8,534 nucleotides of DNA from a virus (taxonomy: Duplodnaviria > Heunggongvirae > Uroviricota > Caudoviricetes): the IMG/VR virus record IMGVR_UViG_2778261176_000015. One strand, written 5' to 3'. The position numbers were made by a program, and so were the translations under genes. Below, piece by piece: positions 1 through 8,534 of this stretch (position 1 is the stretch's first letter; every line of letters begins with the position of its first letter). The notes under the pieces were generated by a model. The model was not told where the DNA came from, made no database searches, and saw only the letters and a list, made by a program, of their open reading frames with translations.

Positions 1-219
1 TCACATCCACATAATTTGCTGCCCTGACGGCAACGGGTGCGGCCTTACGGCGTGGACTTCTCCCGGCTTCACGATGTATCTCTGTACCGACTCATAGGTG
101 ATGAACGTGGCGCTGCAATTCACGTTCTGACACTGGTGATAACGCTCTTTTGTCGTGTCAGTGATATAGCGGCTTGTACGCGCATGTGCGGCATGCTGGC
201 ATAAAGGACAATGAAACAT
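1..219 (-). CDS. ogr: Ogr/Delta-family zinc-finger late-gene transcription activator (72 aa)
   Basis: Translation MFHCPLCQHAAHARTSRYITDTTKERYHQCQNVNC... carries the CxxC-N22-CxxxxC zinc-binding pattern of P2 Ogr. ATG at 217-219, TGA at 1-3. SD-like GGAAGAGG lies 8 nt upstream. The ORF track's longer 97-aa form (from 294) has no better start context, so I take the internal Met. Confidence 0.88.
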   Translation of the reverse strand: MFHCPLCQHAAHARTSRYITDTTKERYHQCQNVNCSATFITYESVQRYIVKPGEVHAVRPHPLPSGQQIMWM

Positions 220-253
220 CGCGAGCACCTCTTCCGGTTTTGTTGATAGTGCC

Positions 254-282
254 ATTTTAGTTAATTTATCCTTATAAAACAA
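254..282 (-). promoter_or_regulatory. Candidate sigma70 promoter for ogr (TTGTTT-N17-TAAAAT on minus strand)
   Basis: On the minus strand the -35-like TTGTTT (277-282) and -10 TAAAAT (254-259) are 17 nt apart, about 35 nt upstream of the ogr ATG in the D-ogr intergenic gap. Hexamer match only. Confidence 0.3.
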
Positions 283-300
283 ACAGATAAACAAAATACA

Positions 301-1464
301 TCACTCATAATCTTCTGTTTCGTACTCCACATCAGAAAGCCTGACCTCAAGCTCTAAGGACGTCGTGAAGCCGCTATTATTCAGAAAATGTGTCACCTTA
401 GTGATTGTCCAGTCCTGCTCGTCTATGACGCGCTTAAAGCCTGACACTCTGACCGGTGTTTCCGTGTAAATATCTGCACGACCGGTAGCCAGGATGATGG
501 AGAACTCCGCAACGCCCCGTTGCAGTTTATCCCACTTCGCCTGAGCGGCACGCATAGCCTGCGCTTTTGTGGCATATACCGTGGTCAGGGCAAAAACGTT
601 GTCAGCTTCACCTGCCATGTATTCACCTTCGCGCGCTTCCGGTGCTTTTGGCGCTTTCTTCTGCGTGACCGGTTTCGCTTTCGGGTGCTCCAGTGCGCGC
701 AGGTGTTTCTCTTTCTTTTTGCGTTTCAGTTTTACCTTCTGCTTTTGTGGCTTCGGGTCTTTGGTGTGAAGCCACTTTGCCGTTACGCCGGTATAGGCTC
801 CACGGTCAGCAATCGCAAAATGATGACGGTCACCGTCGCTGCGGGTGATGGTAATCTGCGGGATTTTTTTACCGCTGGCCGTCACCCCCTGCCCCGCTTT
901 GAGAAACAACAGTTTTCCCATTTTTACCGACACCTCACCGCCGTTGCGTTCTGCAAGACGGGTCAGAAATTTCGCATCAGACTCCTGCGACTGGTCGATG
1001 TGCGGGATTTTAATTCCGGCCAGTGACGGAGCGACACTGGCTTCCAGCCTGTTACGGGAGGCTATCGCCTCAACAATCGCACCGAGCGTGGTGTCATGCC
1101 ATGAGCCTTCCCGGCGGGAATTGAGCGTCCCGCGAAAATCTGCACTCCGGGCACGGATGGTGACCACATCCGGCGCGCCCCGGTGTTCAACCTCATCAAC
1201 GGTAAATTTCCCTTTGCATACCAGGGCAAAACCTTTCCAGCCGATATACACCGTCAGGACAGCGCCACGAACCGGCAGCCCGACCTGCCCGTCGGCATCG
1301 TTCAGTTCAATATCAAGCTGGTCAGCCTCAAAGCCCCGGTTATCCGTCAGGGTCATGCTCATCAGACGGTCGCTGATATTGCCGGTAATATCCCTGCTGT
1401 CGAGCATCAGCATGTAATCCGGCGTCAGCGTACTGCCTGCATCAAATGTCAGCGTATCCAGCAT
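301..1464 (-). CDS. D: Tail protein gpD (phage late control D / baseplate hub-like family), 387 aa
   Basis: 387-aa ORF at the position and length I recall for P2 gpD. Its ATG (1462-1464) overlaps the gpU stop (TAATG), indicating translational coupling. Contains a Lys-rich low-complexity linker. Confidence 0.88.
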   Translation of the reverse strand: MLDTLTFDAGSTLTPDYMLMLDSRDITGNISDRLMSMTLTDNRGFEADQLDIELNDADGQVGLPVRGAVLTVYIGWKGFALVCKGKFTVDEVEHRGAPDVVTIRARSADFRGTLNSRREGSWHDTTLGAIVEAIASRNRLEASVAPSLAGIKIPHIDQSQESDAKFLTRLAERNGGEVSVKMGKLLFLKAGQGVTASGKKIPQITITRSDGDRHHFAIADRGAYTGVTAKWLHTKDPKPQKQKVKLKRKKKEKHLRALEHPKAKPVTQKKAPKAPEAREGEYMAGEADNVFALTTVYATKAQAMRAAQAKWDKLQRGVAEFSIILATGRADIYTETPVRVSGFKRVIDEQDWTITKVTHFLNNSGFTTSLELEVRLSDVEYETEDYE

Positions 1465-1943
1465 TATCCCGCCCCCGTCATACCCGTGAATTTAGTTGCC
1501 ATACTGCCCGCCTTACCGATGAGCGATTCCGCCTGTTTACCGATATCGCCATAAAGCGCGGCCAGTGATTCATCAACGCGGGTAAGTGACAGCGTAAAAT
1601 CAATTTTCCGGGGTGTGCCGTCGGCAAAGAAAATACTCCCTGTTTCACTCACCCTGCTGATGACATACATGCCGTAAATCATGCCGGTGCCATCCAGCAA
1701 CGGCCACGCCCGGCCTTCCTCTGCCATCAGCCTGAGCGTGGTCATCGTCAGCTTTCCGCCGGTCAGTTCGGGATAAAGCACACCGGCAAGCGTGATGTTT
1801 TCCTCGCCAACGCCGAGAAACTGGTAGGCATCCCGTTTACCGATACGGGAATTTGACGGCCAGCGATAATCAGATTCACGCTGCATGGTCTGGTGTGGCA
1901 ACGTCTGGCGCATAAAAACAAACATACCTAACGCGAGCATCAT
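1464..1943 (-). CDS. U: Tail protein gpU (P2 gpU family), 159 aa
   Basis: 159-aa ORF between T and D, matching P2 gpU in position and length. Strong SD GGAGGTGA 6 nt upstream of the ATG at 1941-1943. Confidence 0.88.
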   Translation of the reverse strand: MMLALGMFVFMRQTLPHQTMQRESDYRWPSNSRIGKRDAYQFLGVGEENITLAGVLYPELTGGKLTMTTLRLMAEEGRAWPLLDGTGMIYGMYVISRVSETGSIFFADGTPRKIDFTLSLTRVDESLAALYGDIGKQAESLIGKAGSMATKFTGMTGAG

Positions 1944-1957
1944 TTTTCGTCACCTCC

Positions 1958-4405
1958 TTAACCGTCATGCATCATGCTGGCACGGGCGCGCGCACGTTTA
2001 TCCCGCTCGTATTTTTCGAGCGCATCCTGTAACTGGCGGTCAAGCTGTGTCCCCGGCGCAGTACCGCCCGTCAGGTTGATGTGATATTCGTTTTTACTCT
2101 GGTCCACATAAGAGCGACCAGCCGGTGCCGTGACCGGCTGATAAGCCTGATAGCCTGCATAAGAGCTGGTCGCCGGAATATAACCGCCGGTGCCATACGT
2201 GGCGGCATGAGTCCTTGCGGCGGTCTGGTCAAGTGTGTCTGACTCTTTGTTGATAACACCGAGTTTTTCCAGTACCCAGTCAATACCGCTGCGCAGTTTG
2301 TTGAACGCATTAAGCGGCAGCATCAGCGCGTCAGCCAGTGCCTGCCCGAACATGACGCCCGTGTCACGGCAACGGTTCAGGGTGTCCTGGGTGGCTTTAA
2401 CCGGGGCAATCAGGTTTTTAAACCACTGCCACGCGGCCTGTAACTTTTCACCCAGCCAGTCAAACAGCGGCTTAAGTGGCGTGAACAGTTCCCCCACCGG
2501 CGCAAATGCCGCTTTCAGCCCTTCAACCACACCGCCAAAGAATGCGCTGACAGGCTCCCAGTATTTACGGATAAGTAACGCTCCGGCGACAATGGCGGCC
2601 ACCACGGCCACTACCGGCCAGCTAATCGCCCCGATGGCCGTCATAACGGCACTGCCAACCGTCGTGAAAATTGCCCCCATTGCGCCTGCTGCAGCGATGA
2701 TGGCATTGATGCCGGTGATAACCGGCCAGGCTACAAGACCAATTGCACCGATGATGCCAGTAAGCGCCAGTGCGCCACCGGCAATGATGCCGATGGTTGA
2801 CGCCAGTGATTTGTTTTTCTGGATCCAGCCGTCGAGTTTTAACACATACTTTGTGGCCGTCTGCGTGAGCTTACGCAGTGCGCCTTCCTGCTGGTCAAAC
2901 AGGTCAGTCCCCACCGCCTCATAAGCGGACTGAAACTCCTTAAAGTCACCGCCTAGGTTGTCCTGCATGATATTTACCAGCTCGGCGGTCTTCCCGTCTG
3001 AGGCTTTAAACGCAGCGGTCAGTTTGTCCAGCTTTCCGGTTGAGGCGGCAGTCATCAGCACGGCGGCGGCTGAGCTGGCCTCCTCCCCGAAAATAGTTTT
3101 CATGTATTCAGCCTGCTGGGCAGTACCGAGCCGGTTTTTCTCAAAACTGGCCTGCATTTCTTTCAGAATGGTAAATACTGGCCGGGTGTTTCCCTTGCTG
3201 TCTGAGGTTTTCACACCAAGCTCTTTCAGTGCATCCCATGCTTTTCCCGTCGGTGCCTGCAGACGGCTTAACACGGCACGGCTTCCCGTCCCCGCCATTG
3301 AACCGGTAATTTTTGCATCATGCAGCGCCCCGACCATTGCGGCGGTTTCTTCAATGCTGACACCGGCATTTTTTGCCACAGGTGCGGCATAGGTCAGCGC
3401 ATCGCTCATACCGTCAAAATCGGCGGCGGTTTTGTTCATCGTCATGGAGAGAACATCCCCGATATGAGCGACCTTATCGTTTGAAAGCTGAAAGGCGGAT
3501 TTCATCCCCATCAGCAGGGCGGCGTTTTCTTCCATCGTGCGGCGGTTCGCCAGTGCCATATTCAGCGTGACCGGCGTTGCCGCCTGAATAGCCGCAACAT
3601 CTCCACCCGCTTTCGCAATGATAATCTGCGCACCGGCCGCATCATCCGCTGAGGCGGCGGTGTTGTCACCGAGCTGGCGCGCCTGCTTGCGTAGTGCAGC
3701 CATTTCGGCGGAGTCTTTTGCCACTCCGAGCACGGCCTGCAATTCTGAGTTTTTCTGCGCAAACTCATAACCGGGCATCAGCAACTTAACTCCGGTCATC
3801 GTTCCCGCCGCCGCAATCCCCACACCGGCAGCGCCTACTGAGGCCATATTTCCGGCCAGTTCCTTTCCGGCCTGATAACGCTGTTTGACTGCGTTAAGTT
3901 TTGCCTGTTGCGCACTGACACGCGCCAGCGCGTCGCGCTGACGGTTAAGCTGTGCGGTGGTTTCACTGATACGGTTTTTCAGTCCCTGCTCATCATGTGC
4001 AAGATTGCGGGTATTAATTCCCACAGCGGCCAGTTCCCGCTGCTGGCGTTTAACGGAATCCGTCAGGCGGTTATATTTCGCCTGTAAGTCCTCCGCCGCT
4101 CGCTTTGCGGATTCCAGCACTTTCGCCTGAGCACGGGTCGGACGTTCGGTGTTTTTAAACTGTGTGGCAAGGGCTTCGGCTTCCTGCCGAGCCTTTTCAA
4201 GTGCATGACCAGTCACGGCGAGCTGTGCACTGGTCTTGCGAAATCCCTCAATACGGGATGCCTGACCGTTCAGCTCGCGCAGTGATTTTTGTGTTTCCCG
4301 GATATCCCCCGACAGCGACTTACTCGCTGTGCGGATGGATTTAAACGGGCGGGATGCCTGGTCAACAGCCCTGAGCAATACCTGTAATTTTACATTGTTA
4401 CTCAT
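1958..4405 (-). CDS. T: Tail tape measure protein gpT, 815 aa
   Basis: 815-aa ORF with an Ala/Gln/Arg-rich helical N-terminal half and a long Gly/Ala/Ile-rich hydrophobic segment (about aa 533-612), typical of tape measure proteins. Its ATG (4403-4405) overlaps the E' stop (ATGAGTAA). Confidence 0.9.
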   Translation of the reverse strand: MSNNVKLQVLLRAVDQASRPFKSIRTASKSLSGDIRETQKSLRELNGQASRIEGFRKTSAQLAVTGHALEKARQEAEALATQFKNTERPTRAQAKVLESAKRAAEDLQAKYNRLTDSVKRQQRELAAVGINTRNLAHDEQGLKNRISETTAQLNRQRDALARVSAQQAKLNAVKQRYQAGKELAGNMASVGAAGVGIAAAGTMTGVKLLMPGYEFAQKNSELQAVLGVAKDSAEMAALRKQARQLGDNTAASADDAAGAQIIIAKAGGDVAAIQAATPVTLNMALANRRTMEENAALLMGMKSAFQLSNDKVAHIGDVLSMTMNKTAADFDGMSDALTYAAPVAKNAGVSIEETAAMVGALHDAKITGSMAGTGSRAVLSRLQAPTGKAWDALKELGVKTSDSKGNTRPVFTILKEMQASFEKNRLGTAQQAEYMKTIFGEEASSAAAVLMTAASTGKLDKLTAAFKASDGKTAELVNIMQDNLGGDFKEFQSAYEAVGTDLFDQQEGALRKLTQTATKYVLKLDGWIQKNKSLASTIGIIAGGALALTGIIGAIGLVAWPVITGINAIIAAAGAMGAIFTTVGSAVMTAIGAISWPVVAVVAAIVAGALLIRKYWEPVSAFFGGVVEGLKAAFAPVGELFTPLKPLFDWLGEKLQAAWQWFKNLIAPVKATQDTLNRCRDTGVMFGQALADALMLPLNAFNKLRSGIDWVLEKLGVINKESDTLDQTAARTHAATYGTGGYIPATSSYAGYQAYQPVTAPAGRSYVDQSKNEYHINLTGGTAPGTQLDRQLQDALEKYERDKRARARASMMHDG

Positions 4406-4825
4406 TCGTGTTTCCGCTTCGCCGGAGCGCCTTTTCGCGCCATGTGATGAGTTCGGTCAGGCTCATGGGATACAGTTCTGATGGCGGCCAGTGAAATATC
4501 ACAGCCACATCCGCCATCAGGTCATCGACCGAGAGATTTTTCGGAAACGTCACTGCACCGAGTTCGGCGACAAAAAACCGACCACCTTACCGGCCAGCGC
4601 CACAAGGTCAGGCAGTTCCAGCGCGGCGACTTCCTGCTCGGTCAGCATCGGTGCCGTCATGCGCGGCAGCACTTTAATCAGTGCATCGACTTCGGAGTTT
4701 GCGACCGCAGCCAGACTGACACCGCGCAGCGTCCCCGCATTGGGTTTCATCAGCGTGACCTGTTCGATAACCTGCTCACCACGTTTGACCGGATTGTCCA
4801 GGGTAATGACATTTTCTTTGTTCAT
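4398..4825 (-). CDS. E+E': Tail assembly chaperone E+E' fusion produced by programmed -1 ribosomal frameshift (predicted 142 aa)
   Basis: Slippery heptamer T_TTT_TTG at 4571-4577 (minus strand) in the E frame. After a -1 slip the reading continues as VAELGAVTFPKNLSVDDLMADVAVIFHWPPSELYPMSLTELITWREKALRRSGNTNE to TAA at 4398-4400. That gives 85 + 57 = 142 aa, matching my recollection of P2 E+E'. Confidence 0.8.
4550..4825 (-). CDS. E: Tail assembly chaperone gpE (91 aa), zero-frame product
   Basis: 91-aa ORF directly upstream of T ending ...AGKVVGFLSPNSVQ. ATG at 4823-4825, TGA at 4550-4552. Position and length match P2 gpE. Confidence 0.85.
   Translation of the reverse strand: MNKENVITLDNPVKRGEQVIEQVTLMKPNAGTLRGVSLAAVANSEVDALIKVLPRMTAPMLTEQEVAALELPDLVALAGKVVGFLSPNSVQ
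4571..4577 (-). promoter_or_regulatory. -1 programmed ribosomal frameshift slippery heptamer (TTTTTTG)
   Basis: Plus-strand caaaaaa at 4571-4577 is TTTTTTG on the coding strand, in X_XXY_YYZ register with the E frame (GGT TTT TTG), 6 codons before the E stop. Confidence 0.75.
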
Positions 4826-4881: not shown

Positions 4882-5400
4882 TCACAGGCCGATATTGCGG
4901 CGGTGTTGCTCCAGCCGGTCGACGCCGTTCACCTTCTCAATCATGTTGATGGTGTCGATTTCGACCAGCTCCTTACCGTCCATCGTCAGCCGGAAATAGG
5001 TGCAGACCACGGAGATTTTCGACTCGGTATCTTCTCCCTGTTTCCCCTCGCCGGTGTCGATTTCTTTCTGACGTCCACGCATGACCACCTCGACGGCCAC
5101 CGTTTCGCCGGTATCGTCGCGCTGGTAAGAGCCTGCAAAACGAATCGGTACGGCATCCACACCGGTTGCGGCGTAAAGCTCCCAGATAACCGAATCCGGG
5201 AAGCCACCGAGCGACCACTCCATTGACAGCGCATCATCATCAAGGCCGAGGTCTACCGGGGCGCTGCCGTTCATCCCCGCACCGCGATAGTTTTCGAGCT
5301 TACGGGTCAGTTTTGGTAGCGTGACGGACTTCGCGACGCCCTGATAGCTGTAGCCGTTCAGAAAGACGTTCATTAACTTGAGTTTGCGCGGCATTGCCAT
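4882..5400 (-). CDS. FII: Tail tube protein gpFII, 172 aa
   Basis: 172-aa ORF immediately downstream of FI (12-nt gap with AGGAG SD). Position and length match P2 FII. Confidence 0.9.
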   Translation of the reverse strand: MAMPRKLKLMNVFLNGYSYQGVAKSVTLPKLTRKLENYRGAGMNGSAPVDLGLDDDALSMEWSLGGFPDSVIWELYAATGVDAVPIRFAGSYQRDDTGETVAVEVVMRGRQKEIDTGEGKQGEDTESKISVVCTYFRLTMDGKELVEIDTINMIEKVNGVDRLEQHRRNIGL

Positions 5401-5412
5401 CGGTCAGGCTCC

Positions 5413-6603
5413 TTAATTGCTGTTAACCGAGGTGACCAGATTTGCCAGGTATTTATCGGTAATACGCTGGCGCAGGGTCAGGTTTTCAAGAGGAGGCACC
5501 GGGGTATAGTCGTAGTCGATATACAGTTTTCCGGCCTTGAGGGTTTCCGCATCGTTGGATTCTTCACTGAACCAGCAGGTCGCATCCACGATATAGCCGT
5601 TTGTTTTCAGCTCTCGGAATTTGGCATTAATGCCATCAACGATGTCGCGAATCAGCGTTGCGGTGATGGGCTTGTCCACCGCCCACATGTGCGCCTCAGC
5701 CATCGTGTCGGCCAGCACCTGCGCGGTGCGGGTGTAGTTTTCAAAGAGGAACAGCGGGTCATCAGAGCAGGTACGGTTACCCCAGAAGCGGAAACCGTCA
5801 CGACGAATCAGCGTTGTGACACCTGACTCGTTCAGCAGGTCAGCATCGGTGCCGGACTCCTGCAAATCCCAGAATACAGAGGCGCTGATGCCGGTAACAC
5901 CGTTTACCCCGACGTTGGACAGCGTTTTATGCCAGCCCTGCTCCTGGTCAATTCTGGCACGCAGTCCCAGCGCACGGGCGGTGGCATACGCGGTGGCGGT
6001 GGTACTCGTGACCGTATCCCATGCGAGGAAATCCGGCCAGATGACCATCAGCTCACGCTGGCTGAAATTCTGGCGGTAGGCTTTCACCTCGGAAATGGTT
6101 TTACAGCCGCATGCACTGATATACCCGAAAGCGCGCAGCTTCTGACAGACTGATGCCAGTGCAACAGCCACCTCTTTGGTGTCCAGTCCCGGCACGCCGA
6201 GAATACGCGGTTTAACACCGGTTACCGACTCCGCCGCCAGCAGGGCTTTCAGTCCGGTGTACTGACCGTTTTCGTCGGTGGTGCCGATGATATTGGAAAC
6301 GGTCTGCGCGAGTTTCGTTTCCTCGTCGTCGCCGGTGCCGTCTTCCACACGTACGACAACGGTGACCGGTTTTGACTGGTCGGCGATGGCCTGCAACGAT
6401 GCCGCCAGCGTGCCTTTTTTACCGGCCTTTGCAATTGCACTCTGCACATTGGTAATCAGCACCGGTTTATTGAGGGGGAAGGTTTCCGCATCCGCATCGC
6501 TGGCCGTGCAGACCATGCCGACAATGGCAGTGGATACGGTGGAAATGACACGGGTGCCGTCGTTAATCTCCAGCACCTGCACGCCGTGATGATAGTCACT
6601 CAT
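5413..6603 (-). CDS. FI: Contractile tail sheath protein gpFI, 396 aa
   Basis: 396-aa ORF starting MSDYHHGVQVLEI..., which I recognise as P2 FI sheath. SD GGAG 8 nt upstream of the ATG at 6601-6603. Confidence 0.9.
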   Translation of the reverse strand: MSDYHHGVQVLEINDGTRVISTVSTAIVGMVCTASDADAETFPLNKPVLITNVQSAIAKAGKKGTLAASLQAIADQSKPVTVVVRVEDGTGDDEETKLAQTVSNIIGTTDENGQYTGLKALLAAESVTGVKPRILGVPGLDTKEVAVALASVCQKLRAFGYISACGCKTISEVKAYRQNFSQRELMVIWPDFLAWDTVTSTTATAYATARALGLRARIDQEQGWHKTLSNVGVNGVTGISASVFWDLQESGTDADLLNESGVTTLIRRDGFRFWGNRTCSDDPLFLFENYTRTAQVLADTMAEAHMWAVDKPITATLIRDIVDGINAKFRELKTNGYIVDATCWFSEESNDAETLKAGKLYIDYDYTPVPPLENLTLRQRITDKYLANLVTSVNSN

Positions 6604-6662
6604 CCGTTTAACTCCGTGGTTAATGGGTGAGTGATATTTTCAGTTGTGCCGGAGATGTCAGG

Positions 6663-7256
6663 CTATTTGTCCCGGTTGGCTAAGGGATGACACAATTTAT
6701 TCTTTGTCGCTGATGAGGGGAATTTTTTATAGAGCGTGGACAGGCCAATATCAAAAATCAGCGCCACACGTTGACGAGATTCCCCCGCAGCCAGCAACCG
6801 TCCGACCTGCTCCCACTCACTCGCGGTGAGTTTCGGACGTCTGCCACCAATACGACCTTTGGCTCTGGCTGCTTCCAGTCCGGCGCGTGTCCGCTCGACA
6901 ATGAGTTCTCGTTCCATTTCAGCCAGGGCACCCATCACATGAAAGAAAAAACGCCCCATCGGCGTGCTGGTATCAATGGCATCCGTCAGGCTGCGAAAAT
7001 TAATGCCGCGTTCGCGCAGCTCCTCAACCAGAATGACCAGATGCCGCATACTACGCCCCAGCCTGTCCAGCTTCCAGACTACCAGAGTGTCACCTGCTGA
7101 TAATGTTCTGAGCATTTTTTTCAGTCCCGGTCTGTCGGACTTCGTGCCGCTGATTTTATCCTCAAAAATCCGCTCGCATCCTGCGCACTCCATCGCGTTA
7201 CGCTGCAATTCCGTGTTCTGGTCATTTGTTGACACGCGTACATAGCCAATAAGCAT
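6663..7256 (-). CDS. Serine site-specific DNA invertase, Hin/Gin/Cin/Pin (Din) family, 197 aa
   Basis: N-terminus MLIGYVRVSTNDQ with the catalytic Ser, internal DTLVVWKLDRLGRS and MGRFFFHVMGALAEMERELIVERT motifs, and a C-terminal helix-turn-helix (GLSTLYKK). Start taken at the second ATG (7254-7256), which has AGGGGGA 5 nt upstream; the first ATG at 7262 abuts the SD with no spacer. Confidence 0.9.
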   Translation of the reverse strand: MLIGYVRVSTNDQNTELQRNAMECAGCERIFEDKISGTKSDRPGLKKMLRTLSAGDTLVVWKLDRLGRSMRHLVILVEELRERGINFRSLTDAIDTSTPMGRFFFHVMGALAEMERELIVERTRAGLEAARAKGRIGGRRPKLTASEWEQVGRLLAAGESRQRVALIFDIGLSTLYKKFPSSATKNKLCHPLANRDK

Positions 7257-7283
7257 GAGCATCCCCCTGAATAAAAACCGGAG

Positions 7284-7676
7284 ATGATGCCAGTTGCCCG
7301 TTATCTCTGCATTTTCATAAACGTTGGTTTGGGAGAAGCGGCTAAAAGGAATGTAGGGACAGGTGCGAATCAGCTACCTGATATGGGTAGTTTTATGCTT
7401 TCTGCTTCAGTTCCTGGATATCAAAAATTGCCATCCGGTTTAATTATTCAATGGGGGCCAATTGATGTTCCGCTGACGTCTCAGGACACAGTAACCTATT
7501 TTCCGATTGCATTTCCGAACAGATGTCTGCGGGTATTTGCGACTCAGGATTACACTCCCGGCAGTGCAAATGTTGGCTATATAGCTTGTGCCGGTTATAA
7601 CCAGGACCCGGTGAAATTTATTTCCAGAGCAGGCGTACCCGGTATCGGTGCTTCATTTTTCGCATTAGGGTGTTAA
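7284..7676 (+). CDS. Alternate (currently silent) tail-fibre C-terminal receptor-binding cassette; ORF fragment, about 130 codons
   Basis: Translation ...[29 protein letters not shown]...[23 protein letters not shown]... resembles phage tail-fibre tip domains. It points away from the late operon, and the nominal ATG has GGAG directly abutting it with no spacer, so it is probably expressed only after inversion fuses it to the constant fibre gene at the crossover site. Confidence 0.55.
7312..7337. other. 26-bp invertase crossover site (hix/gix/cix-like): TTCTCCCAAACC-AA-CGTTTATGAAAA on the minus strand
   Basis: Imperfect 12-2-12 dyad with AAACC/GGTTT-type inner arms and an AA/TT core at 7324-7325. 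It lies 56 bp upstream of the invertase start and inside the 5' end of the silent tail-fibre ORF, encoding IFINVGLGE. Resemblance to Din-family sites is from memory. Confidence 0.6.
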
Positions 7677-7702
7677 TTTCTTTTAACTTTATGGAGTGAA
7701 AA

Positions 7703-8143
7703 ATGAATTACATATATTCCGCGACTACAAACTCTTTCTATCCCTTGGAGATGAAAGAGGATTACACGCAAGCTGACTCATGGCCAGATGATGCTGTTGA
7801 AGTTGATGAGCAAGTGTATATTGAGTTTTCCGGATTACCGCCGAAAGGAAAAATCCGTATCGCTGGAGAAAATGGTTTTCCTGCATGGTCTGAAATTCCA
7901 CCACCAACACATGAGGAACAGATTGCTGCAGCCGAACTGAAAAAGCAGCAATTGATTAATCAGGCCAACGATTATATGAACAGTAAACAATGGGCTGGTA
8001 AAGCGGCTATTGGTCGTCTGAAAGGTGAGGAACTGGCGCAATATAATTTGTGGCTGGATTATCTGGACGCACTGGAGCTGGTCGATACTTCCAGTGCGCC
8101 AGATATTGAATGGCCTACTCCTCCGGCAGTTCAGGCCAGATGA
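7703..8143 (+). CDS. Tail fibre assembly protein (Tfa family), alternate-orientation copy, 146 aa
   Basis: GGAG SD 6 nt upstream of the ATG at 7703. C-terminus ...LWLDYLDALELVDTSSAPDIEWP matches the Tfa motif I recall from e14 TfaE (VDTSTAPDIEWP). It directly follows the alternate fibre tip cassette. Confidence 0.8.
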   Translation: MNYIYSATTNSFYPLEMKEDYTQADSWPDDAVEVDEQVYIEFSGLPPKGKIRIAGENGFPAWSEIPPPTHEEQIAAAELKKQQLINQANDYMNSKQWAGKAAIGRLKGEELAQYNLWLDYLDALELVDTSSAPDIEWPTPPAVQAR

Positions 8144-8153
8144 CATCCGGCGC
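8096..8153. repeat. Imperfect inverted repeat formed by the convergent 3' ends of the two tfa genes
   Basis: GCGCCAGATATTGAATGGCCT (8096-8116, plus strand) against GCGCCGGATGTCATCTGGCCT (reverse complement of 8133-8153), about 15 of 21 identical. Both encode APD(I/V)(E/I)WP. The two genes overlap by 29 bp (8115-8143). Confidence 0.4.
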
Positions 8154-8534
8154 GGTGCTGGTATCTGTTGCCGTCACCGCGTCAATGTAATCCAGCACAG
8201 TGTTAAGTCGGGAGGTCTCTGCCTGCATCAGCTTCCGCCCAGCCTGTAATTTCAGTTGAATCAGACTAATGGAAGCCATTGCAGTGTCAATCAGTGACTG
8301 ACGCTGTGCTTCTGCCGCGTCTACTGCGGCGTGATGCTGTGCCTCAGTATCGGTCACCCATTTCTCACCATCCCATTTATCGTATGGCGTTAATGGGGCG
8401 ATAGTGGTTGTATTTTCGGGGTAATCACCCGGAGTTGTGATTTCTTTGGCGTCTCCCGTTTCGGTGTTATAGACGATTTCTCCGCGATGGTCTGGCACAT
8501 ATTCCCATGAGTTTAAATCCGCAGAGCGGCAGAT
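8115..8534 (-). CDS. Tail fibre assembly protein (Tfa family), 5'-truncated by window end
   Basis: The reading frame is open to position 8534 (ICRSADLNSWEYVPDHRGEIVYNTETGD...), so the ORF track's Met at 8498 is a GTG and not the true start. It has the W-x-x-V-x-DHRG-x-x-VY motif seen in TfaE-like proteins and ends ...DTSTAPDVIWPELPEE with TAG at 8115-8117. Confidence 0.8.
   Translation of the reverse strand: MCRSADLNSWEYVPDHRGEIVYNTETGDAKEITTPGDYPENTTTIAPLTPYDKWDGEKWVTDTEAQHHAAVDAAEAQRQSLIDTAMASISLIQLKLQAGRKLMQAETSRLNTVLDYIDAVTATDTSTAPDVIWPELPEE

Follow-up and report, generated by a model that had tools for sequence, protein, structure and literature searches.

Host-range switching is a known function of the DNA inversion systems of phages Mu and P1 and of their relatives. 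Among characterised systems, the one that comes closest to the locus described here is found in the cryptic prophage e14 of E. coli K-12, as its P segment (stfP-tfaP-tfaE-stfE-pinE) with the invertase PinE. It consists of a constant fibre part followed by a tip, an assembly gene (tfa), a second and convergent assembly gene (tfa'), a second tip (tip') and a crossover site, and the invertase gene lies outside the segment. The G segment of Mu, with the invertase Gin, is laid out as S-U / U'-S'v with gin outside and with 26-bp gix sites, and the C segment of P1 with Cin is of the same kind. Multiple-inversion systems have more than two crossover sites and more than two arrangements, and in the case of the R64 shufflon the recombinase is the tyrosine enzyme Rci. 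For the invertase family it has been shown that recombination takes place in an invertasome formed on a Fis-bound enhancer, with cleavage at the 2-bp core and strand exchange by subunit rotation (PMC3798978). The enhancer of gin is located within the invertase gene itself (Kahmann 1985, cited in PMC3798978).

Inversion loci are also on record for P2-like phages, where an invertase and convergent tfa genes are likewise found between the fibre genes and FI. A "DNA invertase" is annotated in public records of Peduovirus magyaro 'Escherichia phage P2' (O157:H43 T22, KC618326) and of many E. coli prophages in RefSeq, and the arrangement is also annotated in several induced E. coli phages and in relatives from Klebsiella and Salmonella. 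In the P2-like prophages of EPEC E2348/69 (n=2) coexisting orientations were found by sequencing and PCR (PMC4272514). The iLund4u preprint lists an invertase, together with inversion of the adjacent genes, as frequent cargo of the Z/fun hotspot. The arrangement is thus real and already known, from public annotation as well as from experimental inversion in P2-like prophages, and no essential difference separates the element described below from the P2-like inversion loci on record.

The window, i.e., the whole stretch of 8,534 nucleotides that was analysed, is the 8.5-kb late-gene right-hand end of a P2-like (Peduovirus) prophage in reverse reading. The genes follow the order FI-FII-E/E'-T-U-D-ogr, with the Ogr-activated promoter PF upstream of FI (Table 1). 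This assignment is based on ORFs, Pfam domains, the RefSeq annotation of a relative, the P2 map and an alignment of PF. The relative, a prophage of E. coli CUPF09 (L001), is colinear with the window, with 201 mismatches over 8534 bp and no indels, and just six of these differences fall in 7001-8534. To the right it continues into the fibre gene H and then into I, J, W, V and the lysis and head genes, while its left end adjoins the chromosomal gene fieF. The full set of tail and late genes is intact in both.

Table 1. Features of the window, with positions counted from its first nucleotide.
Feature	Position	Strand	Basis and remarks
ogr		-	Part of the late-gene module
D	301-1464	-	ORFs and Pfam
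U	1464-1943	-	ORFs and Pfam
T, tape measure	1958-4405	-	ORFs and Pfam
E/E'	4398-4825	-	ORFs and Pfam; slippery run GGTTTTTTG
FII, tube	4882-5400	-	ORFs and Pfam
FI, tail sheath; conserved flank	5413-6603	-	Pfam Phage_sheath_1, Phage_sheath_1C and Gp18_domIII_N
P2 late promoter PF of the FI operon; backbone edge of the insertion	6604-6700	-	Alignment with P2
Gene of a small serine recombinase of 197 aa; DNA invertase, Pin/Gin/Cin/Hin subfamily	6663-7256	-	Pfam; alignment with Gin and PinE
Candidate recombinational enhancer; a pair of G-N13-C elements resembling Fis sites	7100-7165		Motif scan; alignment with gin and pinE
26-bp crossover site, invertase-proximal	7312-7337	+	12-bp half-site, TT core (7324-7325), 12-bp half-site
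Alternative C-terminal exon of H (tip B, Gp53-like_C), predicted silent	7326-7676	+	Pfam PF21882, E 1e-18
Cassette B, tail-fibre assembly gene for a protein of 146 aa, predicted silent in this orientation	7703-8143	+	Caudo_TAP, E 2e-38
Cassette A, tail-fibre assembly gene; 139 of its 200 codons, from the C-terminal end	8115-8534, running off the window edge	-	Caudo_TAP, E 1.5e-31

The border between the P2 backbone and the inserted DNA is found in the promoter region of FI. From about position 6695 down to the start of FI the alignment is near-identical to the annotated PF of P2, for which the P2 record gives both an activator-binding site and a transcription start, and blastn homology to P2 stops at about 6683. 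The earlier note on this DNA had placed the P2 gene G directly upstream of FI. This is wrong; the P2 record has the order G, the terminator of the V operon, the 1.6-kb non-essential fun(Z) on the opposite strand, the PF promoter and FI. Since fun(Z) and the terminator separate G from FI in P2, the invertase gene fills the known variable Z/fun slot of the P2 backbone. The 3' part of H plus G are replaced by the invertible segment.

The ORF at 6663-7262 on the minus strand matches the Pfam families Resolvase (E 3e-52) and HTH_7 (E 5e-13), and its product aligns residue for residue with Mu Gin (PDB 3UJ3/4M6F; E 5e-94 over residues 1-182). Its identity amounts to 85.6% with e14 PinE and to 79% with Gin. 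The protein has the N-terminal catalytic domain with a serine and an Arg/Asp cluster and the C-terminal helix-turn-helix that are found in Din-family recombinases. In the alignment the nucleophile Ser9 as well as R7, D64, R65, R68, H106, and M114 are invariant with PinE and Gin. The Din-family invertase that the earlier note had read here is confirmed by the Pfam domains and the 79-86% identity to Gin and PinE, and the enzyme keeps both its catalytic serine and its DNA-binding domain, the two features by which its integrity was to be judged. Translation is likely to start at the second ATG (7256), from which MLIGYVRVS is read, in agreement with Gin and PinE. A GGGGGA Shine-Dalgarno sequence is found 5-6 nt upstream of this ATG, and the RefSeq relatives are annotated with the equivalent start. 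None of the NCBIfam models gave an equivalog-level match to the fibre and tfa proteins or to the invertase, for which all scores were far below the cut-off. A terminator-like hairpin was also considered at 7276-7295 on the minus strand, in the gap that separates the invertase start from the crossover site, but its folding does not surpass that of shuffled sequence (z = -0.49) and it was rejected.

Unlike Gin and PinE, the invertase carries a C-terminal tail of 16 amino acids, which is there because the 3' end of the gene reads into the activator-site region of the P2 promoter PF. The stop codon (6663-6665) and the last ~12 codons are inside this region.

The basic positions of helix B and the Q, R, and L of helix 1 in the DNA-binding domain are reported to be uniquely conserved in Fis-dependent invertases (PMC3798978). 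In the present enzyme K46, K47, and R50 as well as Q149, R152, and L153 match Gin, and the residues reported to contact Fis and the enhancer are kept at an overall identity of 79%. By analogy with Gin, the candidate switch would depend on Fis and on an enhancer. Two G-N13-C elements are found in the invertase gene at positions ~101 and ~149-151, spaced by ~48-50 bp. They have AT-rich centres and are partly conserved with gin and pinE, and they make up a candidate enhancer, the motif being highly degenerate and loose and the scan non-discriminating.

Next to the invertase gene, but outside it, is a 26-bp site in which a 2-bp core is flanked by imperfect half-sites of 12 bp each. Its sequence is TTTTCATAAACGTTGGTTTGGGAGAA. 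With up to two mismatches to the Din-family consensus TTNNNNNAAACCNNGGTTTNNNNNAA allowed, no other place in the window matches, and 0.04 matches would be expected by chance. All 26 of its 26 positions agree with the pinE-proximal site in the e14 element of K-12, and the crossover site that had been placed at 7312-7337 is thereby corroborated. The core dinucleotide and the half-site sequences differ from those of Mu.

The window stops ~680 bp before the position of the partner site (~9212-9237 in window numbering, extrapolated from the CUPF09 prophage). In that prophage the best inverted repeat pairs the invertase-proximal site with 10613-10638 inside H. Read on the minus strand this partner is TTCTCGCATACC-TT-GGTTTGGGAGAA; it shares its TT core and inner half-site with the first site and differs from it in the outer half-site alone. 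The same TT core is carried by the inverted partner site in both colinear relatives, the CUPF09 prophage and that of strain EFF60 (L003). The second, inverted site inside a tail-fibre gene that the earlier note had predicted to the right is thus present in a colinear relative, at a distance of ~1.9 kb. In the window element the expected partner is a minus-strand sequence similar to TTCTCGCATACCTTGGTTTGGGAGAA within an H-type gene, with ~1.9 kb separating it from 7312-7337. The element is taken to be complete by comparison with its relatives, as neither its partner site nor the constant region of H would fall inside the window. A consensus scan of the 17.9-kb CUPF09 prophage at up to three mismatches gave no third crossover site, only the two already described. 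A shufflon-like multiple-inversion system, such as Min of p15B, the R64 shufflon or the three-site EPEC locus, can be dismissed because this relative has only two sites, which makes it a two-state switch, and because the recombinase is a serine enzyme. While the EPEC P2-like locus has three sites and four variants, the window element represents the simple two-site form.

The segment next to the crossover site contains the assembly genes of two cassettes. The two tfa genes are convergent and overlap by 29 bp, exactly as in e14, and the order of constant fibre part, tip, tfa, convergent tfa', tip' and site, with the invertase outside the invertible segment, is also that of e14. The assembly protein of cassette B is 61% identical to e14 TfaP, and that of cassette A is ~89-89.9% identical to TfaE; the complete 200-aa gene of cassette A is found at 9516-10118 in the CUPF09 prophage. 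The StfE-type tip is 53% identical to e14 StfE. Of the relatives that had been suggested for the cassettes, e14 TfaE and StfE are recovered, together with TfaP. The earlier note had also described a pair of convergent fibre-tip/tfa cassettes. This holds for one complete cassette and for the convergent tfa genes, but the second tip and the partner site are located beyond the right end of the window.

The two tips differ in their Pfam domains, tip A having a Collar domain and tip B a Gp53-like_C domain. The Gp53-like_C fibre-tip region covers 7338-7676 on the plus strand, and its exon is promoterless; the annotated start of the exon ORF at 7284 is probably an artefact. Judged from the sequence, the cassette at 7326-8143, with the Gp53-like tip and the 146-aa chaperone, is silent in the orientation of the window, and the Collar-domain, StfE-like tip with its TfaE-like chaperone is in the expressed position.

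The likeness to e14 is not complete. While e14 is a defective lambdoid remnant, the host of the window element is an intact-looking P2-like myovirus, and tip B, with its Gp53-like_C domain, is only weakly related to StfP. The invertible segment is ~1.9 kb, compared with 1797 bp in e14 and 3 kb in Mu. The layout is also that of Mu and of P1, but in sequence the fibres and chaperones have little in common with those of Mu, with a weak match to U' alone.

That this segment does invert is seen in the comparison of relatives. When the 1898 bp between the cores of the CUPF09 prophage are flipped in silico, the constant part of H (...AYLGLGE) becomes fused in frame to the otherwise silent tip (...ALGC*), giving an alternative fibre of 391 aa. 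The same prophage in strain EFF60 has a fused H gene (392 aa), annotated at 1179 bp, that ends in Gp53-like_C, and here the TfaE-type cassette adjoins the invertase. Both fused H genes are thus annotated in natural genomes, and the alternative fibre C-termini, each with its assembly gene, are joined in frame to a constant N-terminal part. The inverted form of the CUPF09 prophage aligns with the EFF60 prophage over 7000 bp at 98.5% identity and with no gap. In its native form the alignment falls into three blocks; the middle one, of 1905 bp, is reversed, and the block ends overlap within both 26-bp sites.

Both orientations are also found more widely. In complete E. coli genomes, the junctions covered at 80% or more number 121 in the flipped and 110 in the unflipped form. 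Three IMG/VR contigs (L011, L012, and L016) are 97.6-99.9% identical to the window and change partner between window positions 7315 and 7338. A 60-mer from the window end is found in seven IMG/VR contigs; none is colinear across the site and three show the flipped junction. A search with the 26-bp site gave three species-representative genomes, with 83-92% identity to the window. Near-identical prophages of different strains, as well as different contigs, hence carry either orientation, with breakpoints exactly in the 26-bp sites, and between CUPF09 and EFF60 the flip is precise.

Taken together, the locus is very probably a two-state site-specific inversion switch of the Pin/Gin type, acting on the tail fibre of a P2-like (Peduovirus) E. 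coli prophage. The proposal of a DNA-inversion host-range switch in the earlier note fared well on all four points, i.e., the partner site, both orientations, the intact invertase and the relatives of the cassettes. Since enzyme, sites and layout all belong to the Gin/Cin/Pin/Hin type, the established mechanism of that family is the best model. Dimers of the invertase would bind 7312-7337 and the inverted partner site inside H, and, as in the Gin, Hin, and Pin systems, the bound dimers would synapse on a Fis-bound enhancer within the invertase gene, forming a supercoiled invertasome. Cleavage at the central TT, rotation of the subunits and religation would then flip the 1.9-kb segment. This would consist of two convergent cassettes, each with a C-terminal fibre exon and its own assembly chaperone, and the cassette facing the constant 5' part of H would be translated as the fibre tip. 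A lysogenic population could in this way release virions of two receptor specificities. That the tips confer different host ranges is suggested by their unrelated domains and by the known function of the Mu and P1 systems. The rate of inversion and the distinct receptors of the two tips are, like the dependence on Fis and an enhancer, inferred.

It could be argued that the switch is a fossil, locked by a mutated partner site, by loss of the Fis sites or by residence in a defective prophage, and that the orientations differ between strains due to old events or to recombination between prophages. The partner site is indeed outside the window, the related e14 is a defective prophage, and decayed invertases occur among the relatives; in the O157:H43 T22 phage truncation has left an enzyme of 164 aa that lacks the helix-turn-helix, so the switch can be lost. 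The invertase ORF of the window is, however, intact with all catalytic residues, and its crossover site is without defect. Over 7 kb, all that sets prophages of 98-99% identity apart is an exact flip from site to site, and the window and the CUPF09 prophage have their complete tail and late gene set. A locked element is therefore very improbable.

Inversion might alternatively serve the host, in that a flipped fibre chimera would block the adsorption of other phages, besides or instead of changing the host range. In e14, inversion of the P segment driven by PinQ is reported to lead to a StfE2 fibre chimera by which the adsorption of T2 is blocked (PMC12529663), and the cassettes described here are close to those of e14 (TfaE 89%, StfE 53%, PinE 86%, identical crossover site). 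H, however, belongs to a complete Ogr-dependent late operon in an intact-looking prophage, and under Ogr-dependent late control it should be silent in the lysogen. We consider a host-serving role very improbable. It is likewise very doubtful that a StfE-like or Gp53-like chimera would be made at a low level in the lysogen and change the adsorption of competing phages, as a recombinase-activated defence resembling PinQ/StfE2 but carried on an intact P2-like prophage. On this doubtful reading the invertase gene, by running into PF, could have its transcription coupled to the tail operon.

The practical use of the preferred reading, a two-state fibre switch, does not extend beyond annotation and phage engineering, and no new question arises from it. 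RefSeq names the ORF at 7284-7676 "gp53-like domain-containing protein", but it is best regarded as a silent exon of the fibre gene and not as a separate gene. The annotated length of the fibre gene follows the orientation that happened to be captured, 1335 bp in CUPF09 and 1179 bp in EFF60, and short-read assemblies may break or be mis-joined at the invertible segment. P2-like prophages with a Pin-type switch would be able to yield virions with two receptor specificities.

The two cassettes of the inversion switch converge such that the 3' ends of their tail-fibre assembly genes share 29 bp (window 8115-8143), and tfaP and tfaE of e14 in E. coli K-12 have exactly the same 29-bp 3' overlap (L006 4518-4546). 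In RefSeq the silent cassette, which adjoins the invertase gene, is annotated as a separate gene (window 7284-7676 (+); L003 4450-4995 in the flipped relative from strain EFF60) starting at an ATG 5' of the crossover site. Depending on the orientation it is named either "gp53-like domain-containing protein" or "phage tail protein", and the annotated length of the fibre gene H likewise changes, 1335 vs 1179 bp. Both the free-standing cassette gene and the shifting length of H are annotation artefacts of invertible exons.

At its other end the invertase gene runs into the late promoter upstream of the tail sheath gene FI. Its stop codon (window 6663-6665) lies within PF, and the promoter DNA thus codes for a 16-aa C-terminal tail of the invertase, which Gin of Mu and PinE of e14 both lack. 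The gap between the invertase gene and the FI operon is too short for any terminator. A terminator-like hairpin with a T-run is found at window 7276-7295 (-), between the invertase start and the crossover site; it probably does not function as a terminator, its folding being no better than that of shuffled sequence (z -0.49).

Features of the window and of the related phage L002
Feature	Position	Strand	Remarks
ogr late-activator gene	window 1-294	(-)	window begins in this gene
Slippery run GGTTTTTTG	window 4569-4577	(-)	inside gpE/gpE+E' pair, 4398-4825
P2 late promoter PF	window 6604-6700	(-)	upstream of FI; activator-binding site, -35/-10 and transcription start conserved
Invertase of P2-like phage L002 (KC618326)	L002 6159-6653		annotated as 164 aa

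The mechanical ORF for ogr is 97 aa with a TTG start, and its RefSeq counterpart, OgrK, is 72 aa. In the colinear prophage of E. coli CUPF09 the prophage end adjoins the chromosomal genes fieF and pfkA (L001 263-1620), and this points to the integration locus. The slippery run lies just 5' of the E stop, where the overlapping E' frame begins. This arrangement agrees with P2, for which a programmed -1 frameshift is annotated.

The invertase of L002, the Escherichia phage P2 from O157:H43 T22, diverges in sequence from around residue 130 and is missing the HTH domain. Judged from its sequence, this copy seems to have been frameshifted or to have decayed, and the inversion switch is therefore probably locked in this phage.
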